Below are positions 1,696-17,548 of a stretch of DNA of 18,531 nucleotides, piece by piece. Within the stretch, counting starts at the first letter, position 1. Each line of letters starts with the position of its first letter. Location: NCBI GenBank assembly GCA_016840425.1, contig JAEOSI010000020.1, positions 1 through 18,531 on the forward strand, written 5' to 3'. This DNA is from Candidatus Wukongarchaeum yapensis. GTDB taxonomy: Archaea > Asgardarchaeota > Wukongarchaeia > Wukongarchaeales > Wukongarchaeaceae. The notes below the pieces were generated by a model. It worked only from the letters and a program-made list of their open reading frames with translations. It was not told where the DNA came from and ran no database searches. The position numbers and the translations under genes are program-made.

Positions 1696-1791
1696 GTTCC
1701 TGCTCCCACTTGGCAACTGATTGCCTGACTAATTGGTTTAATATTATATCTTTTAATAAAGTTTTCATAAGGCTGAAGTTTTGCCCAATAA

Positions 1792-2757
1792 TCATCGTTT
1801 GTGCCTTTCATGGAGTTTTCTCATATAGAATTTTTTCCCTTCGTATTCTGTCTCGATGAGTTGTTCTTGATCGATTAATTTTTGAATAGTGGACCAGTCA
1901 GCCTTTGCCTGCGACAAAAACTTCTTCACAGCTTCTTCTCTCATGGGATGCACCGATGTAATGCTCAACAGATCTTCTTCAACGTTTCCCGTAAAAGCAA
2001 AGGCATTGCCCTCGTAACCTATGAGATATTCTACATTGTCAATTTTTTCACTAAAGTTTTGGTAGGCTCTATTAATAACTTCTTCACTGGGAGGTTGCAC
2101 CCACTTTTCTGCGGGCGGTCTTGTGGCGACGGATAAGTAAGCCTTACTGGGTTTCAACTGTGTCAAAAAGTCGGCAACTTCCTTAATATGTTCCTCACGG
2201 TCATTAGCGCCTTTTAGAAGCATCGTTTCTGTTACTAACTCTCCGTCGTAAACCTTGGAAAACTCTAACATACCGTCCAAAATTGTGTCTAATTCCAAAT
2301 TTTGATGGGGTCTGTTGATCCTGCGCCAGAACCTTTCTCGGGTCGAATCTACTTTCAAAGAGACCCAATCTGCTTTCATAAGGTCTTCTCTAACATCAAC
2401 ACGCCAAATGAGTGAGGCGTTGGTGATCACCGCAGTCTTGATCCCCAAGGGCTTCAAAAGATCGATTTCAAAGCCAAGATTAGCGTCTAGCGTAGGCTCG
2501 CCGTCGGGTACGAAGGTAAGGTAATCGATGGATTCGCCAACTTCTCTTGTTTTTTCTATCTTTTCCTCAACCGCCTTCAAAATTTCCTTTGGTTCATAAA
2601 ATATGAGGCGCTGGACCTGTTTCTTTATTGTACGTCCTAACTGGCAATAGACACAGCCATAACTGCAAATCTTAGGGGGGATATTGTTGATTCCTAAGCT
2701 ACGTCCTAAACGTCTAGATGGGACCGGTCCGAAGGCTATCATGATTTGGAACTCCAT
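1792..2757 (-). CDS. Radical SAM Fe-S oxidoreductase (COG0731-like, TYW1/Taw1-related group)
   Basis: CSYGCVYC (CxxxCxxC), N-terminal FGPVPSRRLGRSLGIN and DGEPTL motifs typical of this family. Alternative start ATG 2742. Confidence 0.88.
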   Translation of the reverse strand: MEFQIMIAFGPVPSRRLGRSLGINNIPPKICSYGCVYCQLGRTIKKQVQRLIFYEPKEILKAVEEKIEKTREVGESIDYLTFVPDGEPTLDANLGFEIDLLKPLGIKTAVITNASLIWRVDVREDLMKADWVSLKVDSTRERFWRRINRPHQNLELDTILDGMLEFSKVYDGELVTETMLLKGANDREEHIKEVADFLTQLKPSKAYLSVATRPPAEKWVQPPSEEVINRAYQNFSEKIDNVEYLIGYEGNAFAFTGNVEEDLLSITSVHPMREEAVKKFLSQAKADWSTIQKLIDQEQLIETEYEGKKFYMRKLHERHKR

Positions 2758-2888
2758 GGTAAGAATTGGTTTCTAAAACATTTTTAATTTATGTCACCAT
2801 CCCCTTATACCCTTTTATTTTATACTGTTATTTTATTGAAGTGGAGATGTTTTAGATTTTTAGAGGTTGTTTGGAGGGTTTTTTGTTT

Positions 2889-3467
2889 TTATTTTTTGTT
2901 TGTTTGGAAGTATTTTTTTGTTTTTATTTTTTCCATCAGTTTTTCGTAGGTGTCCTTTAATCCCTCGACAATAACTCTTGTGCCAGAAAATATGTCGAAG
3001 AAGTTGGCCTCTCTTTTATATCGGGGGACTATTTGGATGTGCAAGTGTTTGATGCTTCCGCCACCAGCGTATCCTTGGTTTATTCCTACGTTGAACCCGT
3101 CGGGATTGTAGGGATCTTTGAGGAGGAGGATGGAGTCTTGAACAAGCTTGTTTAAGTGTAAAAGTAAATCATCGTTTAAATCTTCATAATTTTCGTAGTG
3201 TTTTAAGGGCACAACCATTAGATGTCCGGGATTGAATGGGTATATGTTTAGAACTACCATCGCTTTATTGTCCCTGAAAAGTTCCCAGCTTGGGACTTGG
3301 GGGTTTTTTTTCACTATTTCGCATAGCGTGCAGGCGAATTTTCTTTTTTGGTGGTGTCTTCTTATATATTGAATCTTTTCGGGGCACCATAAATAATCGC
3401 GAAAAACTTTGCCTTCTTCTATCTCTGAATCATTATTTTCGACCAATTGGGTTACTTCTCCTTGCAA
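2889..3467 (-). CDS. HIT-superfamily nucleotide hydrolase/transferase (Ap4A phosphorylase-like), HxHxQ variant
   Basis: CxxC (CTLC), LNIYPFNPGHLMVVP, GFNVGINQG, HLHIQIVPR. Start is a TTG and uncertain. Confidence 0.88.
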   Translation of the reverse strand: MQGEVTQLVENNDSEIEEGKVFRDYLWCPEKIQYIRRHHQKRKFACTLCEIVKKNPQVPSWELFRDNKAMVVLNIYPFNPGHLMVVPLKHYENYEDLNDDLLLHLNKLVQDSILLLKDPYNPDGFNVGINQGYAGGGSIKHLHIQIVPRYKREANFFDIFSGTRVIVEGLKDTYEKLMEKIKTKKYFQTNKK

Positions 3468-3615
3468 GGCTGTTTTATATTGGTTTTTAACTATTTTTAC
3501 TTCTTTTTTTAGTTTTTTATGGTTCTTTTTGAGCGTTTCATGTTACATGGAAAGTATGTGGATAACAGAGGGTTTAATTTTTTCTATTAAGGGAACTTTT
3601 TTGGGTGTTTCTATT

Positions 3616-4251
3616 ATGAATAGTGATTTAGAACTACTTTCGGTTGTCAGGTTTTTTGGCAAAGACGGTTTTTACGCGAGGAAAAAGGAGCAAACAGAAG
3701 CATTATTAGAGTTAGAAAAAGCGAAGTTAGTTAAAATAAAGAAGAGTTCTAAAAAAACTTTCTTGATAACGGATAAAGGTTTAAAATTGCTTCAACAAAA
3801 TTACACCCTTCCACCGCCAAAGATTGAAACAAATGTCGACATGAAAGGGATAGAAGAACTATTTTTACAAGTTAAACATCTTATGGTTAAACTTGAGGAC
3901 ATGCTTGTACAAGTTCAAGGTTTAAGTCAGACGAATAAAGACTATGATGGTTTTAATAATCATGATTTTTTGAATGTAAATAAGGAGAAGGAGGTTTTCT
4001 TTCAAAGCGTTAGAAAAGCTTATAGGCGGAGAATTACTGTCTCAAATCCCTTGGTGAAAATATCGGAGATTTGGGAGGAGGTTCGTAAAGCGCTTCCCAT
4101 ATCTCGAGAGAAGTTTGAAAACTATCTGTTGGAGCTTCATGATAAAGGGAGATTAACGCTTCAGACTGCTATAAGCTCTTTAAAAACGCGGGGAGGAATC
4201 AGGGTCCCTCACGGGGTATATAATTACATTATTTTAGAAGAAGGGGCATAA
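3616..4251 (+). CDS. Hypothetical protein with predicted N- and C-terminal winged-helix-like domains and a central coiled coil
   Basis: The ORF-track start (3409) overlaps the HIT gene and translates low-complexity T-rich DNA. ATG 3616 follows a GGGTG SD-like motif. EALLELEKAKLVKI...FLITDKG and ISREKFENYLLELHDKGRLTL resemble wHTH helix plus wing patterns. Confidence 0.7.
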   Translation: MNSDLELLSVVRFFGKDGFYARKKEQTEALLELEKAKLVKIKKSSKKTFLITDKGLKLLQQNYTLPPPKIETNVDMKGIEELFLQVKHLMVKLEDMLVQVQGLSQTNKDYDGFNNHDFLNVNKEKEVFFQSVRKAYRRRITVSNPLVKISEIWEEVRKALPISREKFENYLLELHDKGRLTLQTAISSLKTRGGIRVPHGVYNYIILEEGA

Positions 4252-4252
4252 A

Positions 4253-5548
4253 ATGGCAAAAGATAAAGTATCTAAAGATGAGATTTTAATACAGGAAAAT
4301 CCTTTTAGGATCTTTGTATCTCGTTCAGACATCCCGGATGAAGTAGACATAATAGAGCCAAGAGTGCATGTAGAAGAAGCGATTGTTGATGTTATTAAAA
4401 CTGTTTCACGGGACAGGATGCCGTATATTTTGCCCGTTTTAGGAGAGGCAGGTTACGGAAAAACTCACCTCTATTGGGCGCTTAAAAAGAGACACAATGA
4501 TCTTAATATTGTTTACATAACACCTCCTTTAAAGGGTTATGACAGGCTTATTCAACACGTCTATTTTTCAACGGTGAAGAACCTTGGCTATGGGATCTTT
4601 GAGAAGATCTCTGAAAATTTGGAAAAAGCTTATGGAGACTTAGATAAAGCAATGTTACATAATCCAGGGTATGCTGCGGATTTGATTCAAGTTTTAAAAA
4701 AGATTGAAAAACCAGAGTTAAGAGATTTGGCGGTAAAATATCTTTGTGGGACGCCTGTTTCTAAGGATGAGTTGGAGGTTTTGTGTGCACGTGAACCAGT
4801 TTTTCGTGAAGACGTCGCACTTCAAGCGTTAAAAATTTTAACTGATAATCTTGAAAAACCTTTAGTGTTATTTTTGGACGAGCTTGAAGCGCCGTACTTG
4901 GAGGGGGGTGAAGAGTCACAGATCAGGTATTTAGAAAACGTAAAAAGAATTTTTAACGAGTGCAAAAATATTGTAATTATTATGGCTTGTCTTACAGATA
5001 TTTGGTCGAAAATAATCTCAATGGCTTCAAGCGCGGCTCAGGGGAGAACAGAGAAACCTAAAATCCTTAGGCGGTTCACTGCAAAAGATATAACCGAATT
5101 TTGTCAAAAAGTATTATCGAACTTTTGGACCAACAAAGGGATTACAAGTCAGAAAAAGGATTCGTTGTATCCTTTATCGGAAAACGATTTCCTTTCTGCT
5201 TACAGGTTTTCCCACGGCAATCCCAGGGAGGCTATACGCTGGATAAAAAACAGAATAGAGGAAAAGAGGTTTAATATACTTAAAAAAGAAAAACCCATAG
5301 AGCCCATTGAAGTCGTTGAAGACGTTATAAAACTGTTAAAAGCCATGGATAACGATCTTGATATAAAGATGATGTTAAAGGGGGAAGAAGTGCAGACAAA
5401 GGTTTCAAAGAACGGTTCTGAAGTCAAATTACGGATAAAAGATAAAAAACTATTTTTAATCAACAAAAATAAGCAGGAAACAGACGTTTCTGAAGAGGAT
5501 ATAGACACCCTAGCCAAAAACATAATCGAAAATCTTTCAAAAAACTGA
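4253..5548 (+). CDS. P-loop (AAA+-like) ATPase of unknown function
   Basis: Walker A GEAGYGKT, Walker B LVLFLDELE, helical lid-like GNPREAI. Starts 1 nt after the upstream stop codon. Confidence 0.88.
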   Translation: MAKDKVSKDEILIQENPFRIFVSRSDIPDEVDIIEPRVHVEEAIVDVIKTVSRDRMPYILPVLGEAGYGKTHLYWALKKRHNDLNIVYITPPLKGYDRLIQHVYFSTVKNLGYGIFEKISENLEKAYGDLDKAMLHNPGYAADLIQVLKKIEKPELRDLAVKYLCGTPVSKDELEVLCAREPVFREDVALQALKILTDNLEKPLVLFLDELEAPYLEGGEESQIRYLENVKRIFNECKNIVIIMACLTDIWSKIISMASSAAQGRTEKPKILRRFTAKDITEFCQKVLSNFWTNKGITSQKKDSLYPLSENDFLSAYRFSHGNPREAIRWIKNRIEEKRFNILKKEKPIEPIEVVEDVIKLLKAMDNDLDIKMMLKGEEVQTKVSKNGSEVKLRIKDKKLFLINKNKQETDVSEEDIDTLAKNIIENLSKN

Positions 5549-6328
5549 TTGAAAAAGCATGCGTATTGCTGCAACGATTAGGATTACTGCAAATAACATA
5601 CGGATACGCTCAACTTTCACGTAACTTAAAGCAAATTTTGAGCCTGAAAAAGCACCAAAAAAAGTTGCTATAGCTAGAGGTAAGGCGAGACCTAGGTTCA
5701 CGCGACCAAATGATCCATAGAGGAGTAAAGAGTACATTGTAGTAATCACTATCATGAAACTGCTGGTACCGACAGAATTACGCATAGAAACCCCCAAAAC
5801 AAGGTGCAGTATAGGGACTTTTATGACACCGCCACCAATCCCTAAAGAAGCTGAGAAAAACCCGGCTAAAAACGAGAATAATAGAGCTAAAAGCAAGACG
5901 TTCTTAGAAAGATTTTTAAAGGAAAAGGGAAAAAAACCGTTTTCCACGTCATTATAAGCCCTTTTAGAGCCTGTAAAAATTTTTATCGATGAAAGGAATA
6001 AGACCAAGGAGAATAGGAACACTAGTATAGTTTGCCCAGCGTGTAGATGAAAATAAAAGCCAAAAGTTGCCCCAATTAAGGTGACGGGCTCTAAAAATAA
6101 CCCTAATTTTAAAATTACCTTTCCGCTTTTAAGATAATTTATTGTAGCGCCTATACTTGTAGGAAGAATCATGGCCAAACTGAGGGGGACCGCCTCCTTC
6201 ATACTAAAACCAAAAATTAGGACCAAGATAGGCACGTAAAAGACTCCGCCGCCTATGCCCACCATGCTTGCTAAAAAACTAGCAAAAAAAACAAACAAAG
6301 CCAACAAAACAAAGGTTAAAAGATCCAT
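5537..6328 (-). CDS. Sulfite exporter TauE/SafE family membrane protein
   Basis: Twice-repeated G(I/L)GGG...VP motif (MVGIGGGVFYVP; LGIGGGVIKVP) and about 8 hydrophobic segments. Confidence 0.9.
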   Translation of the reverse strand: MDLLTFVLLALFVFFASFLASMVGIGGGVFYVPILVLIFGFSMKEAVPLSLAMILPTSIGATINYLKSGKVILKLGLFLEPVTLIGATFGFYFHLHAGQTILVFLFSLVLFLSSIKIFTGSKRAYNDVENGFFPFSFKNLSKNVLLLALLFSFLAGFFSASLGIGGGVIKVPILHLVLGVSMRNSVGTSSFMIVITTMYSLLLYGSFGRVNLGLALPLAIATFFGAFSGSKFALSYVKVERIRMLFAVILIVAAIRMLFQSVF

Positions 6329-6389
6329 GGAAAAACACCAAAAAAAACATTAGAGAATTTTTATAAATTCAAACATAGAAATGTAGCAC

Positions 6390-6566
6390 CTAAAAAAAAG
6401 CAAGGAAAAAATAAACTAAAAAAAGCGCTGCCAAAATTAGAAAAGCGAAGAAGCCGCAGATGCAGATGTTAACAGTTTTTTCAGAGGGAGGTTTTTGCTC
6501 TTTTTCTTCAATGTCCCCATAATATTTTAATGCTTCTTTTATCATCTCATCAGGATGTTTATCCAA
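6390..6566 (-). CDS. Small (58 aa) predicted tail-anchored membrane protein, below the ORF-track cutoff
   Basis: Manual translation: TTG 6566 with GGAGG 10 nt upstream gives MDKHPDEMIKEALKYYGDIEEKEQKPPSEKTVNICICGFFAFLILAALFLVYFFLAFF, stop TAG 6392-6390. Confidence 0.55.
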   Translation of the reverse strand: MDKHPDEMIKEALKYYGDIEEKEQKPPSEKTVNICICGFFAFLILAALFLVYFFLAFF

Positions 6567-6750
6567 TATTAGTTTTCCTCCTAAATCTTGACCAATTAAA
6601 ACCTCAGTTTTTTCATAAAATTTTCCCCCCTAGAAAACTTAAAAAAATGCGATAATATATAAAAAAATAAAAAATAAGGTCGTTCAAAACTAGAAAATTA
6701 AAAAAAAGAGAGAAAATTAATAATAGGAAATTTTTAACAGGGCGATTTTT

Positions 6751-7203
6751 TTACCAATTTATAAGCTTTAAGACGTCTTTTAAGTCTTTCTCAACGATTT
6801 CGGGTTTTTGCGGGGCTTTTGGCTTTTCCATTAGTATTTTGTTGACTTTCTCAAGGACTTTGGATAATTTAAGCCTTATGAGGCCGATATTTCCATTTTT
6901 ATCCATAGCCACTGAAATAATATGGTTTTTAAAACAGGGGTTAATAAGGATAAAACCTTTTGAAAACTCTAAGGTTAAAAGGTCCATTCTCTTCATTTCT
7001 GCCCTCTCACCTTGTTCCATATTACCTGAGAAAATCGCGTGAGATATAGGACCCATAACTAATTCTTTAGGATCATCTTTTCCTAGTCCTGCACTAAATA
7101 ATAAAAGCCCAACATCATCTACCAAAACCACCGAGATAATGTGCTTGTCTGAGCTATACAATTCCTCCAACACAGAACTAATTTCTACTAGTTTTTCCTG
7201 CAA
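6751..7203 (-). CDS. Roadblock/LC7 (MglB/LAMTOR-like) domain protein with a charged C-terminal tail
   Basis: Pattern IISVVLVDDVGLLLFS ... LTLEFSKGFILI ... IISVAMDKNGNIGLIRLKL fits the Roadblock alpha/beta fold. TTG start. Confidence 0.75.
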   Translation of the reverse strand: MQEKLVEISSVLEELYSSDKHIISVVLVDDVGLLLFSAGLGKDDPKELVMGPISHAIFSGNMEQGERAEMKRMDLLTLEFSKGFILINPCFKNHIISVAMDKNGNIGLIRLKLSKVLEKVNKILMEKPKAPQKPEIVEKDLKDVLKLINW

Positions 7204-7371
7204 AAATAAAGACCTACCTAATCAACACTACTTATACTTAAATAACTTCTAAAAAAAATAAATATCTTCTAGAAAAAATATCCGAATTTCTAAAAGAAAA
7301 ATCCGCAAATTAAAGTTTAAAAAACAATTTTCTCATAATTAACAGATGCAATCACTTTTCTTTTCATTTCT

Positions 7372-9294
7372 TTAGCCTTGTTCTAGAACCGCCTTTATCT
7401 CTTCTCTTAAGATTCGGCTAACTGTTTTCCCATCAATTTTCCCACGTAACTCTTTCATAATCTCCCCCATCAGAGGACCGATAGATTTCTCTCCTCTTTC
7501 TTTAATTATATTGAGATTTCTCTCCAGTATCCCTTTTATGAAAATTCTAACTTTTTCAACGGACACCGTTTCAAGTTTCAACTTTTCAACGGCTATATTA
7601 GCGGTGTCTCCAGGATTGCTAGCAAGATGTGTTAAAAGGTCGTCAACAACTTCTTTTGCTACACGATTTTCAGCTAAAAGTTCAAAAACCTGCCAAAGAT
7701 GATCCCTTGTTATCCTATCAACAGGAACACCATCCCGACCCAAAGCCTTCATCTTCTGAAGAACAGTGGTAGCTACAAGCATCGGATCAATACCAAGTTC
7801 ATTAACAATATTTTCAAATAAAATAGCATAATCATGAACCGCTAATTCATAAGCTAAAGTTTCAGGTAATTTAAGCCCTTTTACGTATCTTTCCTCACGA
7901 ATCCACGGATAATCAGACAACTCTGCCCTAATTTTTTCTACCAGCTCTTCAGGAATAGATATCGGAGGCGTATCCGTATCAGGATACATCCTAGCACCAC
8001 CACCAAGAGGTCTCTCAAACTCCGTATTACCTTCAAGCAACGCCCTCCTAGTTTCTGGGGGCACACCGCCTAAAGCCTCTCTAGCGCGGATTATACACTC
8101 TTCAAGAGCCATTCTAGCCCGTTCAAGCTCAGAAACAACCACAATAACACAATCATCATCACGAGCCCCAAAAACGGATAACAACGCCTGTTTTTCATCC
8201 TCGGATATGCTGTATGCTGGAAGCTCATCCGTATGAATTATGCCACCAACACCAGCAATTACCCGAGCTCTATCTGAGACCTCCTTCCCAAACCTCCTCC
8301 CCGGCTGAACTTCCTTCCCAAGCAAACCGGCAAATTTTGAAAGTTTAACGCCTAAAACTACGGCGCCCTTACCCACAGCCTTCCTTATAAATTTAGCCTT
8401 AGTTTCTGAGAAAATATCAGTAACATCTTTAAAATCAACAGTCAATTCCTCTACTTTCAACCCTCTTTGCTCCAACTCATCCCGAATCTCGAGAAGAGCC
8501 AACTGTCTCAACACTTCATTCCTAACAAGAGGCGCAATCCACTCAAGCCTCTGCACCCCTTTAACCTCTACGCGCCTTCCCCCCTCAATACTCACATTAA
8601 TATCCTGACGTATCGTGCCCAAACCCTTTCTAACACGCCCCGTAGCTCGAAGTAACCTGCTTATCCTATGAGCAGCCTCCACAGCCTCCTCAGGAGACGA
8701 TATATCCGGATAAGTACCAATCTCCACGAGAGGAATACCGATACGATCAGTCCTCCAAACAATCTCCTCCTCACTCTCATCAATCTCCCTACAAGCATCC
8801 TCCTCCAAAGAAAGCAAAGAAACCCTAATCTTTTTACCACTCCTCAAAGGCAAAAAACCCCCAGTCCCCACAATCATCGTCCTCTGAAAACCCGTAGGCA
8901 CACTACCATCAAGATACTGCTTCCGCGAAATATGCCACTCATCAAGCACCTCCACATTAAACAAAAGAGCAATCTCTATAACTATATTCACAGCCTCTTC
9001 ATCCACCTCAAAAGGAGGAATCTCATCAATCTCATAAAGACAAGTAGTATCATCATAAATCTCATAAACTATCCTCTTACCCTTCTTAAACTCCATAAGA
9101 GCAGTCGGATCAAACTCCCCCATCTCACTCAAAGTCGGCCGCATAAAACGAACCACGCGCGAATCAGGATCCTCCTTCCTCAACTCCGCAGGACAACGAC
9201 AAAAAAGCTTTCCCCGCGTAAACAACTGCTGATGAATCTCCAAACCCACCTTAAGACCAACACTTCCATAATCCAACCTATCACTTTCAACCAT
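7372..9294 (-). CDS. gatE: Glutamyl-tRNA(Gln) amidotransferase subunit E
   Basis: GLKVGLEIHQQL..KLFC.CP, DGS..GFQRT, LEEDA, GLGTIRQDINVSI, ARMYPDTD, and a C-terminal YqeY-like GPLMGEIMK. ATG 9294 is preferred over TTG 9330. Confidence 0.97.
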   Translation of the reverse strand: MVESDRLDYGSVGLKVGLEIHQQLFTRGKLFCRCPAELRKEDPDSRVVRFMRPTLSEMGEFDPTALMEFKKGKRIVYEIYDDTTCLYEIDEIPPFEVDEEAVNIVIEIALLFNVEVLDEWHISRKQYLDGSVPTGFQRTMIVGTGGFLPLRSGKKIRVSLLSLEEDACREIDESEEEIVWRTDRIGIPLVEIGTYPDISSPEEAVEAAHRISRLLRATGRVRKGLGTIRQDINVSIEGGRRVEVKGVQRLEWIAPLVRNEVLRQLALLEIRDELEQRGLKVEELTVDFKDVTDIFSETKAKFIRKAVGKGAVVLGVKLSKFAGLLGKEVQPGRRFGKEVSDRARVIAGVGGIIHTDELPAYSISEDEKQALLSVFGARDDDCVIVVVSELERARMALEECIIRAREALGGVPPETRRALLEGNTEFERPLGGGARMYPDTDTPPISIPEELVEKIRAELSDYPWIREERYVKGLKLPETLAYELAVHDYAILFENIVNELGIDPMLVATTVLQKMKALGRDGVPVDRITRDHLWQVFELLAENRVAKEVVDDLLTHLASNPGDTANIAVEKLKLETVSVEKVRIFIKGILERNLNIIKERGEKSIGPLMGEIMKELRGKIDGKTVSRILREEIKAVLEQG

Positions 9295-9523
9295 TTCAGA
9301 AACCAAAAAACCCACTCCGTAAAAACCCAAAAAACCTTAGCTTAACTAAAAATGATAAACAAAAAACTAGCTTTTAACATTAGCGCAACATACAACAACA
9401 AAAAAACTAAAATCCTTACCGAGGAATGCTTGAGGAACTTTAATGCTGCACTATATATTAAATAAAACATCTGAAAACCAGAAAAACATGAAAAACATGA
9501 AAAAACCGTTAAAGTTGCTTTTC

Positions 9524-9970
9524 TTACCTGCGTATCATGCGTATGCCCGTATTAACATGGTTAAGCTGCCTTTCAGTATAAGGTTTTAAAAGCTTAAAAC
9601 CGAAATTTGAATACCATTCTATAAGACCTTTCCTCCGCTCTAAAAACTCCCTTCTTAACAACTCTTTACCACCTTTTTCAAAAGGTTTTACAACAAGGGT
9701 CGCTATCGCATTTCTCTCATCTAAAAAGTCTAGAAACTTATTCATCAAGGTCTTTCCATATCCCTTGTTCCTAAAATCAGGATCAACATAAATCTTGAAA
9801 AGTTTATACAATCCAAGAGTGAATTCGTCCACTTCCAACCGTGCAACAATTTTCCTCCTTTTACCTGCCGGAACCGTACTAATAGTAAAAAAATAAGAGT
9901 CACGCCTTTTTACAACACGCAAAATATCATTCAAAGATTTTCTTCCTTTGAATAATGTTTCCTTCCCCAT
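9524..9970 (-). CDS. GNAT-family N-acetyltransferase
   Basis: Acetyl-CoA motif A YVDPDFRNKGYGKTLM and motif B LIEWYSNFGF. ATG 9970 has GAGG upstream; the ORF track extends to 10009. Confidence 0.82.
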   Translation of the reverse strand: MGKETLFKGRKSLNDILRVVKRRDSYFFTISTVPAGKRRKIVARLEVDEFTLGLYKLFKIYVDPDFRNKGYGKTLMNKFLDFLDERNAIATLVVKPFEKGGKELLRREFLERRKGLIEWYSNFGFKLLKPYTERQLNHVNTGIRMIRR

Positions 9971-10262
9971 GCAAAACCTCTTTTTCACCCCAAGATCGGA
10001 CGTAAGCAATCACCTTAAAATTATCACACCTACAACCCTAAAACAAAATATATACATCCCATCTCAAATAACTTTCTACTCCTTAAGTATATTACAATTA
10101 AACCCTATATATGGACATATTAATAGTTTAGAACCCTTCAACTCCTACCTTATAAAAATATCTCAAGACTATATTTAAAAAAACAACCAAAACCAAATTT
10201 GACATAAAAACAAAAAAAAACAAAGCGAACCCGAAAACAGGCTCAACAAGAGGTTTTCACTC

Positions 10263-10733
10263 TTGCTAAATTTAGAAAAAGAAAAAGTTTACCCCATAGG
10301 ATACGTAGCAAAAGTTTGGGACGAAGAAAAAGCCAAGATAAAGATTAAAAAAGAGTTTGCAGAAGGTTTTGAAAGAATTGAGGAGTTTTCCCACTTAATA
10401 ATCCTTTACTGGTTTCATCTTCGCGATAATTCGGAGCATAGAACTGTTTTAAAAGTCCATCCAAAAAGACATCCCGACGCCCCCATCGTAGGCGTTTTTT
10501 CTTCCCGCAGCCCGAGTAGACCGAACCCCATAGGACTATGTATAGTAAAAATTTTGGAAATAGGGAGAAACTATGAGTATATAGATGTCGAGGGATTAGA
10601 TGCTCTGGAGGACAGCCCAATAATCGATATAAAACCCTATATTCCCCTCAGAGACACAATACCTAAAGCCACTATCCCCCATTGGCTTAAAAAACAAACA
10701 GACAACAATCGAAATCCTGAGAAATATCTTTGA
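10263..10733 (+). CDS. trmO: tRNA (N6-threonylcarbamoyladenosine(37)-N6)-methyltransferase TrmO/TsaA (YaeB/AF0241 family)
   Basis: PIGYV, FSHLIILYWFH, GVFSSRSPSRPNPIGL, LDALEDSPIIDIKPY. Confidence 0.92.
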   Translation: MLNLEKEKVYPIGYVAKVWDEEKAKIKIKKEFAEGFERIEEFSHLIILYWFHLRDNSEHRTVLKVHPKRHPDAPIVGVFSSRSPSRPNPIGLCIVKILEIGRNYEYIDVEGLDALEDSPIIDIKPYIPLRDTIPKATIPHWLKKQTDNNRNPEKYL

Positions 10734-10816
10734 TAAAAAACTTTTAAAGCAAAAAAAAGTTCGAAAACAAAAAAAAACGTGAGAAAATCTAAGAGATTTT
10801 AATGGTGGCTTAAAAC

Positions 10817-12247
10817 ATGGATAAAAAAGAAGAAGATTCTTTACAAGGTTACAGAGGAGAAGCTCAAAAAACGCTACAAAAGTACGGCGTAAAAGTATGG
10901 TCCGAAGTAAAAATAACAGGAAAAAAACGAATTTTTGAAGGAATAGTGCTCCCAAGAAGCGAACTAGGAGACGACAAACACATCGTGATAAAACTACCAA
11001 ACGGATACGACATAGGAATAAACATCAAAGACATAGAAACAATAGAAGAAAAAGGATACGAACCCGCCGCCTACAAACTCCCAGAAAAAACCTTTCCAAA
11101 AGACGAGAAAAAACCCAACGTAACCCTCCTAGGCACCGGAGGAACCGTAGCAGCCCGCCTCGACTACCGCACAGGCGCCGTAATACCCGCCTTCACCCCC
11201 CAAGAACTCTTCACAGCAGTACCAGAACTAACAGACATCTGCAACCTAGAAACAAGAACAATCTACGAAATATTCTCAGAAAACATGAAACCAGAACACT
11301 GGCAAAAAATCGCCGAAGAAACAGCCAAAGAAATAAACAAAGGAACAGAAGGAGTCATAATCGCCCACGGAACAGACACAATGCACTACACAGCATCAGC
11401 CCTCACATTCATGCTAAAAAACCTACCCGTACCCGTCGTAATGGTCGGAAGCCAAAGAAGCAGCGACCGCCCCTCAAGCGACGCAGCAACAAACCTCATA
11501 AGCGCCACCCTAACCGCCGCAAAAAGCGACATAGCCGAAGTAACAATCTGCATGCACGAAACAACAAACGACCCCACCTGCCTCATACACAGAGGAACAA
11601 GAGCAAGAAAAATGCACTCAAGCAGAAGAGACACCTTCCGCACCATAGACGACACACCCCTCGCAAAAGTAAACCCCCTCACAAAACAAATCACACCCCT
11701 AAGAAAAGACTACAACAAAAGAAAAAAAACCAACAAGAAGAAGAAAGAGGAGAAGAAGAAGGAAGAGAAGAAAAAAGAAGAAAGAGGAGAAGAAGAAGGA
11801 AGAGAAGTAATAGCAGACACAGCCTTCGAAGAAAAAACAGCCCTAATATACACATACCCAGGCATAAAAAAAGAGATAATAGAACACCTAATAGACCAAA
11901 ACTACAAAGGAATAGTCATAGCAGGAACAGGACTCGGACACACACCAGAAACACTCATCCCCACCCTAGAAAGAGCAATACAACAACAAAACATGACAAT
12001 AGTAATGACCACACAATGCCTCTGGGGCCACATAAAAATGAACGTATACGACACAGGCAGAAAACTCCTAAAAATAGGCGTAATACCCGGAGCCAACATG
12101 CTCCCAGAAACCGCCTACATAAAACTAGGACACATACTAGGACACACACAAAACAAAGAAGAAATAAAAAAACTCATACAAACAAACATAGCAGGAGAAA
12201 TCACAAAAAGAGAAAAACACAAAGCCTACCAAATACTCCAAAACTAA
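10817..12247 (+). CDS. gatD: Glutamyl-tRNA(Gln) amidotransferase subunit D (asparaginase-like)
   Basis: N-terminal KLPNGYDIG domain, GTGGTVAARLDYRTGAV, HGTDTM, SQRSSDRPSSDA, MLPETAYIKL. Confidence 0.97.
   Translation: MDKKEEDSLQGYRGEAQKTLQKYGVKVWSEVKITGKKRIFEGIVLPRSELGDDKHIVIKLPNGYDIGINIKDIETIEEKGYEPAAYKLPEKTFPKDEKKPNVTLLGTGGTVAARLDYRTGAVIPAFTPQELFTAVPELTDICNLETRTIYEIFSENMKPEHWQKIAEETAKEINKGTEGVIIAHGTDTMHYTASALTFMLKNLPVPVVMVGSQRSSDRPSSDAATNLISATLTAAKSDIAEVTICMHETTNDPTCLIHRGTRARKMHSSRRDTFRTIDDTPLAKVNPLTKQITPLRKDYNKRKKTNKKKKEEKKKEEKKKEERGEEEGREVIADTAFEEKTALIYTYPGIKKEIIEHLIDQNYKGIVIAGTGLGHTPETLIPTLERAIQQQNMTIVMTTQCLWGHIKMNVYDTGRKLLKIGVIPGANMLPETAYIKLGHILGHTQNKEEIKKLIQTNIAGEITKREKHKAYQILQN
11738..11807 (+). 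repeat. Tandem duplication inside gatD: two identical 33-nt copies (11738-11770, 11775-11807), period 37 nt
   Basis: aagaagaaagaggagaagaagaaggaagagaag twice, read in different frames (KKKEEKKKEEK versus EERGEEEGRE). Confidence 0.9.
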
Positions 12248-12353
12248 GAAAACCGAAAAACACCAGCTCTTCTTAGATATACATTAGATGATTATTTTCA
12301 GGCAAATTTTTACCATCGCTTGAGAACTCAACCCTAAAAAAACTACCCCCAAC

Positions 12354-12768
12354 CAAAAACACGCAAAAAAACAACAACCACTAACCAAAAAAATGTAAAC
12401 TTTAAAACAAAAACACGCAAAAAATACACACAAAAAAATAAACCAAAAGGTTAAAAGCCTTAAACAAACCAAATATAAATGCAAATAAACAAAAAAAACA
12501 CAAAAGATCAACTCCCCACCAAACCAGAAGATATAAAAACACCCAACACACAACAAAGTTTTGCTACAAAAATAATAGTAACTCCCTAGATGCAGACCAA
12601 TGAACCGAAAAACCCACTCTTTTGGGTGTAAGGCTCCCTTGGTCGAAGAATAGATGCAAACCAAGAGAATGAAAAAAAGACCTATTCTTTTGGTTGAAGG
12701 ATCAAAGGGAGAGCGGGAGATATCAAAAAAAAACACACAAAGATACCCTCCCAAAAACACGCAAAAAA
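12354..12768. repeat. Three dispersed identical 17-mers CAAAAACACGCAAAAAA (12354, 12408, 12752)
   Basis: Read directly from the sequence. The background is A/C low-complexity, so information content is modest. Confidence 0.65.
12524..12538 (+). promoter_or_regulatory. Candidate BRE/TATA for the 16S transcript
   Basis: CCAGAAG followed by ATATAAAA, upstream of the processing-stem 5' arm. Another candidate lies at ~12473. Position is plausible but unproven. Confidence 0.3.
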
Positions 12769-12809
12769 AACAATAACTCACTCCCAAACTCCCTTAATGA
12801 AGATCACGC

Positions 12810-12892
12810 AAAGGCCCAAAAACAAATAACAATCCCAGCAGAAAACAGAAAAACCCGCTAAAACAAAAACCCCCCCGGAAAAACAAAACAAA
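12810..12892 (+). other. 5' arm of the pre-16S rRNA processing stem, including one BHB strand
   Basis: AATCCCA(12831-37)/TGGGATT(14628-34); central helix GCAG(12838-41)/CTGC(14621-24); 3-nt bulges AAA(12842-44) and TCA(14625-27); ACAGAAAA(12845-52)/TTTTCTGT(14613-20); further pairs CCCCGGAAA/TTTCCGGGG and CAAAACAAA/TTTGTTTTG. Confidence 0.85.
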
Positions 12893-13038
12893 AAAGCGCT
12901 GGGTGTCAGAACCAGACAAAACCCAAAAAAAAACGGTAAAAATGAATGAAAGGTTCAATCCAACAGCGCAAGCAAAAACTCCCCCAAAAACAAAAAAAAC
13001 AAACAAATAGCGGTCAAAAACTTCCCGTCAACTAAACA

Positions 13039-14575
<1,537 letters not shown>

Positions 14576-14580
14576 GATCG

Positions 14581-14645
14581 TTTGTTTTGGGATTTCCGGG
14601 GTGGAGAAGGGCTTTTCTGTCTGCTCATGGGATTTTTGGGCCTTT
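14581..14645 (+). other. 3' arm of the pre-16S rRNA processing stem, including the second BHB strand
   Basis: Complementary to 12810-12892 as listed for the 5' arm. Confidence 0.85.
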
Positions 14646-14651
14646 TTACCT
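14598..14651 (+). repeat. Direct repeat, copy 1 (16S trailer)
   Basis: 31-nt core AGGGCTTTTCTGTCTGCTCATGGGATTTTTG (14608-38) plus GGCCTTTTTACCT (14639-51), both identical to copy 2. Confidence 0.93.
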
Positions 14652-14739
14652 ACCTCTTCTTTTATCTTGAACAGTCTATTTAATTGGGAGTGATTTTTAG
14701 GAGTGCATAAAAAAAGATACAAAGAAAATTTAGCCTTCT

Positions 14740-15504
14740 TTATTGATCATTTCTTCTTTTTTTAATAATATAGAATTCAAATTTTACCATTTTTTCGTAA
14801 AAACAATTCCATAATTCAATGATCATTTGTGCAAATTCTCTGTACTGTTTAGCAGTAAAGTAAAAACCTTTTTCGTCTGTTTTTTCATCTGTTCGTCTAT
14901 GGGGGAAAGAAGAATCCATCTGGCTCACTGTAAAGTTAAGATTACTAGTTATAGTATCAATTAATCTAACTTCCTTAGACGATAATATTTTCTTTTCTTT
15001 AGGTCTAATTATATCCAATTCTTGGACAAATTGTTTTAATTTTGAGAGAAATTGGTTAAACTTTTTTTCATCCCATAGTTTTATCTGTTTTTCAACTTCC
15101 TTTTCCCTATTTACGATATATTCTCTAAATGTAGTAATTATCGCTATATCACCTTTTTGAAAATCATTCTCAACAAAAGTTTCATCCAATATCTTATAAT
15201 AATCATTTATTAAATCTAGATCTCCTAGAGTATCTCTCATATAATTAATAATCAATTTACGAACTTTTCCATAAAATACTGAGTTCCTTTCAAAATCTTC
15301 CTTTTCCTTTTCAAATTCTTCCTTCTTTTTTTCCTCTAACCCATGATACCAATATAAATAGCTAACACTAATCGCTATAATGAGAGTAAATAATATTTCC
15401 GAAAGAAGGTCTTTGAAAAAAAGATAGCTTATAATCACAGTTAGCAAGAGGAATATTGCAATTTTAAGAATAAGGCTTTCTTTAAAACGGTTAACAATTT
15501 TCAC
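14740..15504 (-). CDS. Hypothetical protein with two N-terminal transmembrane helices and a charged helical region
   Basis: Hydrophobic stretches LILKIAIFLLLTVIISYLFF and ILFTLIIAISVSYLYWY. GTG start with GGGGAG upstream. Confidence 0.75.
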   Translation of the reverse strand: MKIVNRFKESLILKIAIFLLLTVIISYLFFKDLLSEILFTLIIAISVSYLYWYHGLEEKKKEEFEKEKEDFERNSVFYGKVRKLIINYMRDTLGDLDLINDYYKILDETFVENDFQKGDIAIITTFREYIVNREKEVEKQIKLWDEKKFNQFLSKLKQFVQELDIIRPKEKKILSSKEVRLIDTITSNLNFTVSQMDSSFPHRRTDEKTDEKGFYFTAKQYREFAQMIIELWNCFYEKMVKFEFYIIKKRRNDQ

Positions 15505-15613
15505 CTTTACTGCTCCCCTTAAAGTTTAATTTTGAAGTACTCTACTTTCTTCAACAAATTTCATGTAAATAGAGCTTGCTTATCTCCACAAAAAAGAAAT
15601 TATCTTTAAGTTA

Positions 15614-16543
15614 TCACGAGATTATCTCATCATAATAGACTTGTAACTTGACCAAGTCTTTTTTGCTTACTTCCCTAGAGTGGGCAATAGCATTCCTTAT
15701 AGGTTCTAGTTCACTTAGTTTAACGGAAATTACTTTCTCGTCTTTGAATTTCTCTTTAAACACTTGTTCCCAATTTTCTTTATCAGTTATTATTTTTACG
15801 TAATCTGTAAAATCAACGTAGTGAATGGGATGGAGGTCTTCGCCTTTGTGCCATGGATATTGTTTCTCATCTTTTTCTTTTCGTTGTTCTGCTTTTTTAC
15901 GAATTTTTGATGGTATTCTTTCTTCCCACCAATTTTCAGAAACCATTTTGAGTTTAGTTTTGATATATTCTCTCAGCTTTGTTTCTAGTTTTTTCAATAT
16001 CTTGTAGGGTTCTTCCATCCGTTTCTTTCTTTCTTGTTCAAGGATCTGAGGGATCTCTTTGTTATAGATAAGGGGATGATTTTTGATCGTTCGAAGGATT
16101 GAAATGGCATGTTTTATCCTAGTTTCGGGTTTTACATAACTATAAACCCGATCAATTTTATTCATTATCAGGTAACTGTTACCTTCAGCAGTTAGATTCT
16201 TCCTCTTTATAGAAACAGATCCAAGATAGTTTTTGATCCTTTCAAGCCATCCCTCACATTTGAATAGAAAGGATCGATCTGTATCTTTCTGTTGCTTTTT
16301 TCGTTGAGCATCAAGATGTTTTTTAGTATATTTTCGTGCCCGTTTTCTTGTTCCAGGTATCCCTAATACTTGGTCTGCAATTTCACCAGCTATTTCGATT
16401 TTAATATCGTCAACTATTTCTTGCCCTACTCTCTTTGTTTCCTTCCCTAAACTTTCGACTTCTCTTGCTAAACTCTCTCCTTCACGAATGAATTGCTCGA
16501 TTTGGCTTTTTATATCCTCCGAAATCTTTATTCCCCAGCTAAT
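15614..16543 (-). CDS. Swt1-like HEPN domain protein (putative RNase) with an N-terminal extension lacking a canonical start
   Basis: C-terminal Y..L..LE..LR.YI...WW...IP...YVDF.DY..II...NW..F...IRNAIAHSR with the HEPN RxxxxH motif. The frame stays open 126 codons upstream of the ORF-track ATG 16165, up to TAA 16546-16544. Confidence 0.72.
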   Translation of the reverse strand: MSWGIKISEDIKSQIEQFIREGESLAREVESLGKETKRVGQEIVDDIKIEIAGEIADQVLGIPGTRKRARKYTKKHLDAQRKKQQKDTDRSFLFKCEGWLERIKNYLGSVSIKRKNLTAEGNSYLIMNKIDRVYSYVKPETRIKHAISILRTIKNHPLIYNKEIPQILEQERKKRMEEPYKILKKLETKLREYIKTKLKMVSENWWEERIPSKIRKKAEQRKEKDEKQYPWHKGEDLHPIHYVDFTDYVKIITDKENWEQVFKEKFKDEKVISVKLSELEPIRNAIAHSREVSKKDLVKLQVYYDEIIS

Positions 16544-16597
16544 TTACTTTAAAGTGTCTTTAAGGTTTGTCATCAAGAATAGTTTAATATTTTTAAA

Positions 16598-16605
16598 TTT
16601 ATAAA
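16598..16605. promoter_or_regulatory. Palindromic TTTATAAA, candidate shared TATA box for the divergent HEPN and nuclease genes
   Basis: Lies in the AT-rich gap between the divergent ORFs, about 27 nt from ATG 16573 on the minus strand and about 35 nt before GTG 16640. Confidence 0.35.
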
Positions 16606-16639
16606 TCATTAAACATTTTTTTAAACGGGAAGATGTGGG

Positions 16640-17548
16640 GTGATTGGATTGGAGAAGAAGAGGTTTGAAAAGTTGGATTTGATTTTGAGTGATTTTTTTG
16701 AGGCTCTTTTTGAGATGAAGACAGAATTCGAAGAAGGGGAGTTGGATCCTGTGAAAGCTTTGGAAACTTATGAGAGGTATGCTTTGGGTCATAAGGCGGA
16801 GCGTGATTTTTTTCGGGGAGTGAATTCGATCGATACGACTTATGTTAGGGTTTCTGCGATTAAGATGTATCATAGAAGGTGGAAGGAGGGTGAGAGGGTT
16901 CTTGATGCTCAGCTTATTTTGCAGAAGGGTAATGATAAGAGGATTTTTGGTGTTGAGTTGAAGTCGAAGTTGTTTGTTGTTCCTGAATTCAAGGGTTCTT
17001 TTTGTAACTTGAAGTGTTTGGTTTCTTTTCCTAAGTATCAGATTGAAGGAGAGAAAAGATTTTGTGAGAATAATGGTTTTGAAGGTTTATTGCTTGGAAT
17101 TGATTTGAGAAAAAACGTTTTTGCGAGAGGAGTTAGACAGTTTTTTAATAGGGTTTTAAGTCGAGAAGAAAAGGATTATGAAAAAGTTCTAGAGAGCGTT
17201 AATATCATAATAAGGAGCAATAAGGCTGAGAATGTTAATTATATAACAGATGTAATTCCTTACATGGTTGATCAGGACTTTGACTATTTGATTTCGGGGA
17301 TTGAGGAGTCTTGGAAATTGAAACATAGGCCTGATTCTTATGAAGGATTTTATTTATTCGGGTTGAGTGATGATATCGTGAAAGAAGCTAAACATGGAAG
17401 ATCTTACTATATTCACCTAGGGGATAGGGAAACTGTTAGTAATTCGCTTTTTATTTTCTTTCCAAAGACTTTGATGGAAGAAAAAGGAGAAAAGAGACAC
17501 ATGGCTTACTTTAATATGGACAAGATATTCAAAAGGTTGCAAGATTGA
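16640..17548 (+). CDS. Putative PD-(D/E)xK (restriction endonuclease-like) nuclease
   Basis: Spacing of helix E (GHKAERDF), strand D (VLDAQL) and ExK (GVELKSK) fits the fold. No specific family is recognised. Confidence 0.6.
   Translation: MIGLEKKRFEKLDLILSDFFEALFEMKTEFEEGELDPVKALETYERYALGHKAERDFFRGVNSIDTTYVRVSAIKMYHRRWKEGERVLDAQLILQKGNDKRIFGVELKSKLFVVPEFKGSFCNLKCLVSFPKYQIEGEKRFCENNGFEGLLLGIDLRKNVFARGVRQFFNRVLSREEKDYEKVLESVNIIIRSNKAENVNYITDVIPYMVDQDFDYLISGIEESWKLKHRPDSYEGFYLFGLSDDIVKEAKHGRSYYIHLGDRETVSNSLFIFFPKTLMEEKGEKRHMAYFNMDKIFKRLQD

Follow-up and report, generated by a model that had tools for sequence, protein, structure and literature searches.

The window, by which we mean the whole 18,531-nt stretch analysed here, comes from a fragmented 2.16-Mb MAG (277 contigs, 1,815 ORFs) of the sediment Asgard archaeon Candidatus Wukongarchaeum yapensis, and carries gatE and gatD on opposite strands together with a 16S rRNA gene. 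Its plus strand forms a ramp that is G/T-rich at 2.8 kb and A/C-rich at 13.0 kb, and then jumps back across the 16S gene. The features are:

2757..2889, no strand: left anchor, where A/C gives way sharply to G/T within the spacer that separates a radical-SAM gene from a HIT-domain gene (Pfam names)
2890..13038, no strand: descending limb, the plus strand passing from +0.37 (G/T-rich) to -0.59 (A/C-rich) over nine genes in both orientations
7372..9330, minus strand: gatE (Pfam GatB_N, GAD, GatB_Yqey), coding strand G/T-rich at silent sites
10817..12247, plus strand: gatD (Pfam GatD_N, Asparaginase, Asparaginase_C), silent sites A/C-only from about 10988 to the stop save 2 G and 1 T at twofold sites
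12248..13038, plus strand: gatD-16S spacer (A 394, C 190, T 114, G 93), G/T retained only in conserved islands
13039..14575, plus strand: 16S rRNA gene (Rfam RF01959, 1390 bits, full length)
14576..17500, no strand: right arm, plus strand rich in G/T (between about +0.1 and +0.35, the GC skew reaching +0.63)

Examination of the third codon positions of gatD reveals that in the 131 codons of 11342-11734 they comprise 64 C, 62 A and 5 G, all five G belonging to ATG, and over the whole gene 268 A, 171 C, 30 G and 8 T (GC skew -0.70, TA skew -0.94). The third-position keto skew of the gene, -0.84, is the lowest among the 1,815 ORFs of the genome. From 10988 to the stop (394 codons, a range that leaves out a Lys/Glu-rich insertion) the twofold sites hold A 75/G 2 and C 71/T 1, and the fourfold sites 99 A, 74 C and neither G nor T. 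Codons 1-200 of gatE are the mirror image of this on the opposite strand, with third positions of G 83, T 104, C 3 and A 10 and twofold sites of G 33/A 4 and T 38/C 1; the bias is strongest at the 5' end of the gene and fades toward its 3' end. These silent-site counts confirm the preliminary description, which had reported A/C endings running to the gatD stop, G/T endings in the 5' part of gatE and their mirror-image relationship; its counts for gatD 11342-11734 and, on the plus strand, for 12361-12420 (14 C, 3 G), 16621-16680 (23 G, 1 C) and 2821-2880 (17 G, 1 C) all proved exact on recount. Four 500-nt segments within 11001-13000 rank 1st, 4th, 5th and 8th lowest in skew among 4,182, and the skew of gatD and gatE is far above chance expectation. 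In the GatD protein K, N, T, P, Q and H together make up 36% of residues, as against 23-29% in 14 other Asgard families.

A linear fit to the 200-nt keto skew along the descending limb gives a slope of -0.063 per kb (r = -0.84, p = 2e-14, n = 51). At the left anchor this skew rises from +0.06 at 2601 to +0.37 at 2801, a switch that the congener G001 shares. The 16S rRNA gene is constrained in sequence and has no skew of its own; the jump lies inside it or at its edges, with a change-point scan placing it at 13044. The left arm of this jump exceeds all others of the genome in length and strength, while the right arm contains smaller secondary jumps near 15635 and 16600 and an ORF (16624-17545, plus strand) with a third-position keto skew of +0.49. 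The spacer at 12248..13038 is probably the promoter and pre-16S leader. Aligned with the same spacer of the relative L026, it displays blocks of conservation, among them a TATA-like AAATATAAAT near 12471, and a 547-nt contig from an RNA library spans its positions 12355-12867. The ORF at 12284-12787 on the minus strand has no Pfam match and is probably spurious. Copy searches of the genome returned one match for gatD and, for the spacer, no second copy, just short low-complexity matches.

Across the genome the G+T versus A+C strand bias is extreme and traces a sawtooth, of which the gatD/gatE mirror forms a single tooth. Whole-gene skew correlates at +0.49 between neighbours on the same strand (n = 944) and at -0.50 between neighbours on opposite strands (n = 594), and the extreme genes divide by coding sense into 38 positive and 38 negative; the bias is therefore tied to the DNA strand and not to gene direction, its sign tracking the strand over genes of either orientation. 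This upholds the earlier view of a DNA-strand effect rather than translational selection, and the outcome named there as its refutation, a bias following gene orientation, is not what is seen genome-wide. GC and TA skews have the same sign in 76 of the 76 extreme genes, and the mean coding-sense third-position keto skew of the genome is -0.02. The change-point scan finds about 142 sharp A/C-to-G/T jumps in the 2.16 Mb, roughly one per 15 kb, and steps larger than 0.5 comprise 41 of this sign versus 2 of the opposite one. As many as 108 of the 142 jumps (76%) are intergenic, against about 19% of the genome, and they are equally common at convergent, divergent and tandem junctions (25, 24 and 52, respectively). 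Codon-sharp jumps also occur within conserved genes, namely psmA, an ABC ATPase, SecY and EF-2 of G013. The arms extend over 0.3-10 kb and typically over 0.3-1 kb. Within genes, coding-sense skew drops 5'>3' in 82% of 828 cases, the end effects fade within 300-500 nt, and the A/C-richness of 3' ends on the coding strand exceeds the G/T-richness of 5' ends. The 23S gene coincides with a switch like that of the 16S gene, and at both the upstream arm is the stronger one. The genes flanking the top jumps are ordinary rather than highly expressed ones, and no motif common to the anchors was found. Together these observations agree with the earlier suggestion of several local sources and point to a highly asymmetric mutational process that starts at many gene borders, not at one replication origin.

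The skew is inherited, long-standing and directional: third-position keto skew of gatD lies between -0.74 and -0.90 in four of four genus-level relatives and within 0.13 of zero in other Asgard families. The relatives diverge by only 9-20% at silent sites and by 8-12% in their proteins, and first-position changes comprise 13 G>A versus 4 A>G. In the relative L027 gatD is equally skewed with no 16S gene within 2 kb downstream.

A long-acting and strongly one-sided transition pressure strips G and T from the plus strand at 2.8-13.0 kb, being G>A and T>C on that strand or, as read on the minus strand, C>T and A>G. It acts wherever selection permits, at silent codon positions, in the non-conserved 16S leader and even in amino-acid choice, and it is anchored at discrete, mostly intergenic points, with an effect that decays over 0.3-5 kb. 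The 16S rRNA gene is the anchor here and the 23S gene another. On both sides of an anchor the strand leaving it 5'>3' is G/T-rich. Given that this is the polarity of a leading strand, the anchors are most likely sites at which outward DNA synthesis is repeatedly launched. Such synthesis might represent replication initiation, recombination-dependent restart or long-tract repair synthesis; the changes may arise either in the displaced strand, as C>T and A>G, or through G.T-type errors in the new strand. The short typical arm suggests that abortive or repair synthesis fits better than far-travelling replication forks.

A possible cause of the intensity of the asymmetry lies in mismatch repair. 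NucS was found in G000 and G001, alongside no more than a weak MutS-like match (E about 1e-10), and a canonical MutS match is present in 15 other Asgard genomes (E about 1e-80). Seven of the 8 most skewed genomes lack canonical MutS, in a comparison drawing on samples of 6-60 kb from each genome, or 440 kb in the case of G013, among genomes that are not phylogenetically independent. The link is imperfect, as G003, G014, G021 and G024 lack MutS1 yet have little skew, and G025 has MutS1 and some skew. EndoMS cleaves G/T, G/G and T/T mismatches but not C/A, Actinobacteria are without mutS homologues, and the leading strands of NucS-dependent C. glutamicum show A>G 48 versus T>C 13 and C>T 67 versus G>A 40 (PMC6159521). 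The leading/lagging asymmetry there is about 2-4-fold (PMC6159521), and silent sites here imply roughly 40-fold or more. The present lineage, apparently without canonical MutS/MutL, would rely on NucS/EndoMS, which would cut G/T but not C/A mismatches, and the leftover transition errors could carry an inherent keto/amino strand bias; we infer that the asymmetry is extreme because of this apparent lack. UDG and endonuclease V are present and the habitat is temperate sediment, so that simple unrepaired heat deamination does not account for the pattern. DNA synthesis repeatedly launched from the anchors, in a lineage with NucS and apparently without canonical MutS, would in our assessment have about an even chance of being the correct explanation as a whole. 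That the sawtooth might be a fossil map of replication or recombination-dependent replication starting from more than 100 discrete intergenic sites including the rRNA genes, a eukaryote-like multi-origin mode visible through NucS-only mismatch repair, we consider unlikely.

If the jumps are indeed starts of DNA synthesis, they would furnish a site-resolved map of replication or repair initiation from sequence alone, and this for an organism that is uncultured and belongs to the archaea most closely related to eukaryotes, in which to our knowledge nothing is known of origin usage. Protein sequences are recoded under a pressure of this strength, as in the case of GatD. The skew also distorts codon-usage and horizontal-transfer tests, can mislead phylogenies, gives rise to long spurious ORFs on the G/T-rich strand, which is poor in stops, and biases composition-based binning.

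Transcription-associated mutation, whereby a non-template strand exposed in bubbles or R-loops gains C>T and A>G, could account for the mirror if divergent antisense transcription from a very strong rRNA promoter skewed gatD, and gatE's own transcription skewed gatE. Consistent with this, both rRNA genes, the expected sites of the strongest promoters, are marked and have the stronger arm upstream, the coding strand of gatE is G/T-rich with a 5'>3' decay, gene 5' ends are on average G/T-rich on the coding strand, and contigs from RNA libraries (of unknown strand) cover gatD, gatE and the spacer. However, the G+T excess on the coding strand that characterizes transcription asymmetry is not seen: gatD is A/C-rich on its coding strand, the genome has no net coding-strand bias by either its mean or its extreme genes, and the effect at gene 3' ends outweighs that at 5' ends. 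Moreover, strong jumps are as frequent at convergent, promoter-free junctions as at divergent ones, the genes at the top jumps are ordinary, and the conserved and probably transcribed 16S leader, downstream of an inferred promoter, is A/C-rich on its non-template strand; this reading thus seems improbable to us.

Alternatively, the anchors could be scars left where double-strand breaks recur at fixed sites and undergo 5'>3' resection and then homologous repair; homing endonucleases of rRNA introns or inteins, mobile-element nucleases or NucS could make such breaks. The 16S genes of Asgard relatives contain large insertions or are split (2.4 kb in G013, 1.8 kb in G002, four pieces in G022), making rRNA genes plausible homing targets; the codon-sharp jumps inside conserved genes and the resemblance of 0.3-5 kb arms to resection tracts also favour breaks, and clustered strand-coordinated mutation, both near breaks and during break-induced replication, is reported to be established in yeast (PMC6786661, PMC9262586). 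Against this, deamination of the surviving 3' tails predicts the reverse polarity, G/T-to-A/C, and the model fits only with errors in the fill-in or nascent strand. An intein-split EF-2, sought at the G013 switch, was not found in 201 Asgard genomes, and most anchors are plain spacers without mobile element, motif or RNA gene, leaving recurrent breaks a rather doubtful source.

The preliminary description had placed a replication origin or a strong single-strand mutagenic source near 12.3-14.6 kb. The origin-like polarity of the switch across the 16S gene and the local nature of the source stand, but a lone origin is not supported, since the same sharp switch recurs about 142 times, mostly in ordinary intergenic spacers. 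A classical Orc1/Cdc6-dependent origin beside or inside the 16S gene, with ordinary but very strong leading/lagging asymmetry, would agree with the polarity and with the exceptional left arm, and on a syntenic 60-kb contig of G001 the 23S end, the 16S end and the vicinity of an orc1/cdc6 gene carry the large-scale jumps. Yet the Cdc6_C domain (PF09079), searched throughout the genome, occurs only on contigs C234, C137 and C32 and not on that of the window (C165), the nearest gene bearing it lying about 20 kb to the left by synteny; at 4253-5548 lies an AAA ATPase whose AAA_16/AAA_22 matches are no more than weak. Of the features of an archaeal oriC, the skew switch (13039-14575) is present, while an adjacent orc1/cdc6 gene, origin recognition boxes arranged as inverted repeats about an AT-rich unwinding element and a number of one to a few per chromosome are not. 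Inverted repeats, as flank archaeal origins, were not found in 12200-13100, which has direct A/C-rich repeats only (CAAAAACACGCAAAAAA, three copies, not conserved in L026). A search of the top 20 jumps found no RNA gene, and the neighbourhoods of the three orc1/cdc6 genes show no special skew. These points, and the skewed gatD of L027 that lacks a nearby 16S gene, make such an origin distinctly unlikely.

Selection on codon choice or on RNA/DNA structure, for instance for an unstructured A/C-only mRNA, might be invoked as A/C-only RNA is unable to self-pair and the bias peaks at silent positions; it is very improbable in view of the opposite codon endings in two subunits of one enzyme, the equally skewed non-coding spacer, the neighbour correlations, which already contradict it, and the unskewed orthologues of other families. 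An artefact of assembly, binning or library DNA damage, as the fragmentation of the MAG could suggest, is for practical purposes refuted, because the same skewed sequence, with only a few differences per kb, recurs in contigs of independent metagenome runs made in other studies, three related assemblies are also skewed, and reading frames and Pfam domains are intact with a codon-position-specific skew.

A published description of such a sawtooth was sought in the literature and none was found, the nearest phenomenon being bacterial GRINS. In vertebrate mitochondrial DNA one strand is likewise nearly without G and poor in T at silent sites, with a gradient that scales with distance from the start of synthesis and is usually explained by deamination of C and A on the displaced single strand; however, that DNA is one small replicon with one gradient, whereas here many short gradients of alternating sign occupy a chromosome. 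Mammalian skew N-domains share the sawtooth shape, rising abruptly at initiation zones and declining slowly and more or less linearly from one zone to the next, but on a megabase scale and with tiny amplitude, as opposed to kilobases and near saturation. Replication asymmetry, including that of C. glutamicum (PMC6159521), has the same coupled GC and TA skews (keto versus amino) with a sign tied to the strand, the same A/C-to-G/T origin polarity and C>T and A>G on the strand leaving the start 5'>3'; in known cases it switches only at origin and terminus, over hundreds of kb and with few-fold rates, unlike the one switch per about 15 kb, arms of 0.3-10 kb and nearly saturated silent sites (40:1 or more) seen here. 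Clusters at breaks and in break-induced replication reportedly also form kilobase tracts with one strand changed and a sign flip at the break, on a substrate of long-lived single-stranded DNA (PMC6786661, PMC9262586), but each arises as one event in one cell and is usually restricted to C and due to a deaminase or alkylating agent, in contrast to an evolutionary equilibrium with both C>T and A>G.

By definition, GRINS are segments present in duplicate (>500 bp, >80% identical) and associated with gene conversion among paralogous modules, and they are commonest in Streptomyces, an actinobacterial genus, with a mechanism that is not known (PMC8256042). They share with the present case intense correlated GC and TA skews, abrupt changes, an effect strongest at third codon positions and a shift between Gly/Val/Cys/Trp and Pro/Thr/His/Gln. 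The tentative link to MutS-less, NucS-only repair would supply a testable cause for these unexplained bacterial elements. Unlike GRINS, the sawtooth involves single-copy housekeeping genes and spacers genome-wide with regular polarity; neither gatD nor the spacer has a nearby region of >500 bp and >80% identity, and gatD does display the GRINS-type skew, with correlated third-position GC and TA skews of mean absolute value above 0.15.

The window, contig C165 of a MAG of 2.16 Mb (277 contigs, 38% G+C), carries the two enzyme subunit genes with mirror-image codon endings beside a ribosomal RNA gene:

7372-9330, minus strand: gatE (Pfam)
10817-12247, plus strand: gatD (Pfam)
13039-14575, plus strand: full-length archaeal 16S rRNA gene (Rfam)

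The counts in the preliminary description are all exact on recount. Third positions of gatD at 11342-11734 comprise 64 C, 62 A and 5 G, each G belonging to an ATG codon. From 10988 to the stop, with a Lys/Glu-rich insertion left out, twofold sites show 75 A to 2 G and 71 C to 1 T, and fourfold sites consist of 99 A and 74 C with no G or T. On the opposite strand, codons 1-200 of gatE end in G (83) or T (104), with C in 3 and A in 10, a bias that fades toward the 3' end of the gene; the 790-nt spacer between gatD and the 16S gene contains 394 A, 190 C, 114 T and 93 G. In skew gatD ranks first among 1,815 ORFs, and the 500-nt windows at 11-13 kb fall within the lowest eight of 4,182. Other studies' independent metagenome runs yielded contigs with the same sequence, so it is real. 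The contigs from these other runs end at the Lys/Glu-rich repeat of gatD (11735-11808), a purine-only insertion, KKKKEEKKKEEKKKEERGEEEGRE, which accounts for 10 of the few codons in the gene that end in G; at 476 aa, GatD is here 12-14 residues longer than in close relatives (462 and 464 aa). The insertion resembles a recent slippage expansion, as yet unconverted by the skew.

Each gene's score was its keto skew at third positions, (G+T-A-C)/N, computed on crude stop-to-stop ORF calls. The scores have a genome-wide standard deviation of 0.245, against about 0.06 expected from sampling. Genes at the extremes are evenly divided between those with a G/T-rich coding strand (38) and those with an A/C-rich one (38), and the skews of neighboring genes correlate at +0.49 on the same strand and at -0.50 on opposite strands. 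Thus, the bias is a regional DNA-strand effect, as had been argued from the two subunit genes, and is neither translational selection nor a simple gene-orientation effect.

On the plus strand of the window keto skew is +0.37 at 2.8 kb, declines roughly linearly (slope -0.063 per kb, r = -0.84) to reach -0.59 at 13.0 kb, and is positive again beyond the 16S gene. The same shape recurs genome-wide; hence the gatD/gatE patch is one tooth, the genome's largest, of a general sawtooth in which ramps alternate with sharp A/C-to-G/T jumps. At sampled positions, 41 steps greater than 0.5 are of this sign versus 2 of the opposite sign, and opposite-sign changes are gradual and occur within genes. The suspicion that several local sources exist proved right: with jump thresholds that are arbitrary, and with long teeth under-sampled on short contigs, 142 sharp A/C-to-G/T steps are found, 108 of them intergenic in a genome that is about 19% intergenic. 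Their junctions are evenly spread (25 convergent, 24 divergent, 52 tandem), and the 23S gene has an A/C-to-G/T switch too. Coding-sense skew drops from 5' to 3' in 82% of 828 long genes (mean +0.10 to -0.17); these gene-end effects fade within 300-500 nt, and 3' ends show them more strongly than 5' ends do. We found no published description of such a sawtooth in the literature searched.

The gatD gene is restricted to A/C in four genus-level sequences, with skews of -0.84 in the window's genome, -0.86 in its congener G001, and -0.90 and -0.74 in the loci L026 and L027 of two further relatives, the last without an adjoining 16S gene. In 18 other Asgard genomes its skew lies within 0.13 of zero. 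The four relatives diverge by only 9-20% at silent sites, against 8-12% in their proteins; the correlation of skew between the two congeners (r = 0.93) was set aside as support, since it largely follows from their 87-91% identity. Lineage-specific third-position changes in gatD number 18 C>T and 13 A>G versus 0 T>C and 1 G>A, and silent-site G and T arise without persisting. First positions show 13 G>A versus 4 A>G, and residues with A/C-rich codons make up 36% of GatD versus 23-29% elsewhere. Together the genus-wide skew, the substitution counts and the amino-acid shift show a pressure that is old, ongoing and powerful enough to recode the protein. Were it purely mutational, the asymmetry needed to give these silent-site ratios would be about 40-fold or more; alternatively, a fixation bias may be involved. 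A scan of metagenome contigs for further relatives to polarize substitutions returned the same contig only, and the two relatives used were obtained via protein search.

The best reading, to which we would give an even chance, is that mutation is strand-asymmetric because it is linked to DNA synthesis anchored at particular sites, in a lineage that apparently relies on NucS alone: DNA synthesis starting at the jumps would produce strand-asymmetric mutations. Canonical MutS, matched at E ~1e-80 in 15 Asgard genomes, has no match in the window's genome or its congener, which yield a weak MutS-like paralogue only. The relevant genes of the window's genome are:

C92, 3980-4375, and C124, 6402-6743: NucS/EndoMS (C124) and the MutS-like paralogue of about 738 aa

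Skew was sampled in 30 Asgard genomes; 29 relatives contributed 6-60 kb apiece and G013 contributed 440 kb. Among the eight with the strongest skew, seven have NucS without canonical MutS, and the spread of skew has a median of 0.118 in genomes lacking MutS versus 0.084 in those that have it (Mann-Whitney p = 0.005, the genomes being phylogenetically non-independent). The association has exceptions both ways, strong mosaics occurring mainly in genomes with NucS and without canonical MutS; a Y-family polymerase is present and does not sort with skew. EndoMS/NucS cuts mismatched G/T, G/G and T/T and leaves C/A uncut (PMC6159521). On the leading strand of NucS-dependent C. glutamicum, A>G exceeds T>C (48 vs 13) and C>T exceeds G>A (67 vs 40; PMC6159521), the same keto-enriching polarity as in the sawtooth. 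Actinobacteria are without mutS homologues (PMC6159521). GRINS, commonest in the actinobacterial genus Streptomyces, have the same compositional signature, but are defined by duplication, which the sawtooth region here lacks.

The upstream arm, the stronger one at both rRNA genes, leaves some room for a variant linked to transcription. Transcription as the cause would predict G/T-rich coding strands, whereas the genome mean is -0.02 and the coding strand is A/C-rich at the 3' ends of genes. Jumps are, moreover, as frequent at convergent as at divergent junctions, and the 16S leader, given its putative promoter, is A/C-rich on the presumed non-template strand. This leader (12248-13038; 1631-2200 in L026) is conserved between the window and L026; it includes a TATA-like box near 12471 and conserved islands that retain G/T, e.g. 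GCGCTGGGTGTCAGAACCAGAC and GAATGAAAGGTTCAATCCAACAGCGC. It also contains a duplication of about 70 nt specific to the window's genome (12590-12720), and CAAAAACACGCAAAAAA in three copies; such elements probably belong to the promoter or serve pre-rRNA processing. Antisense in the same A/C-rich spacer lies a 167-aa ORF (12284-12787, minus strand) without a Pfam match. Stop codons are scarce on G/T-rich strands, and skewed patches therefore yield long spurious ORFs.

Break repair at fixed sites would be consistent with the large insertions in rRNA genes of relatives and with jumps that are codon-sharp within conserved genes. Against it, deamination of resected 3' tails gives the opposite polarity, and no intein was found at the EF-2 switch of G013. 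That switch (L038 3880-3900; G013:C1 at about 103.9 kb), the strongest in 440 kb of this closed genome, falls within the gene for EF-2, only a few codons away from the HRG loop, diphthamide-bearing in eukaryotic EF-2, and has arms of 3-4 kb; an intein scar was rejected after a search of 201 Asgard genomes found no split EF-2. Several Asgard 16S genes are far longer than the model or in pieces (G013:C1:448464-450889, G022:C142:2337-5006, G002:C1:440-2273), which points to large introns or insertions; that of the window has 1,537 nt and is without such an insertion.

An origin at 12.3-14.6 kb had also been proposed. The polarity is indeed origin-like, but a single classical origin is not supported: the three orc1/cdc6 genes are all on contigs other than C165, no inverted repeats were found in the gatD-16S spacer, and the jumps share no motif, k-mer enrichment within 75 nt of the 142 jumps versus 994 control spacers giving A/C-rich words only. 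GGCC is weakly enriched, and at 13% of jumps versus 7% of controls is not a general anchor. Neighborhoods of the orc1/cdc6 genes are unremarkable, without special skew; one gene, placed by synteny with a 60-kb G001 contig some 20 kb to the left of the 16S gene, is near a further large jump, which has a multi-copy element beside it as well. The 23S gene (L068, G000:C123:9181-12253) is unlinked to the 16S gene; synteny with G001, whose contig C1 ends at both rRNA genes, gives a distance of about 60 kb with an orc1/cdc6 gene (C234) in between. No Rfam RNA genes occur at the top 20 jumps, and ARAGORN finds few tRNAs in the MAG. Highly expressed or mobile genes were rejected as anchors, the flanks being ordinary (TrkA, GGT, PEP carboxylase, HisRS, LeuA, an MFS transporter). 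Neither heat nor lost uracil/hypoxanthine repair is the cause, since the runs in which this DNA occurs sampled marine sediment, mangrove and marsh, and two copies of UDG and an endonuclease V are present.

A repeated spacer, about 330 bp long and extremely rich in G/T, is found beside jumps on C189 (10880-11240), C109 (11430-11750) and C89 (2150-2400). The C189 copy is upstream of a 623-aa ORF without a Pfam match, with partial copies on C110, C89 and C137; spacer and ORF make a candidate mobile element, skewed at one end. At the left of the window, 61-1716 (minus strand) encodes a 551-aa HEAT/PBS-lyase repeat protein whose numerous diverged paralogues (64-75% nucleotide identity) are arrayed in tandem at 44-48.5 kb of G001:C1 and scattered on contigs of the window's genome. 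Directly downstream of the 16S gene, 15614-16165 (minus strand) encodes a Swt1-like HEPN-domain protein.
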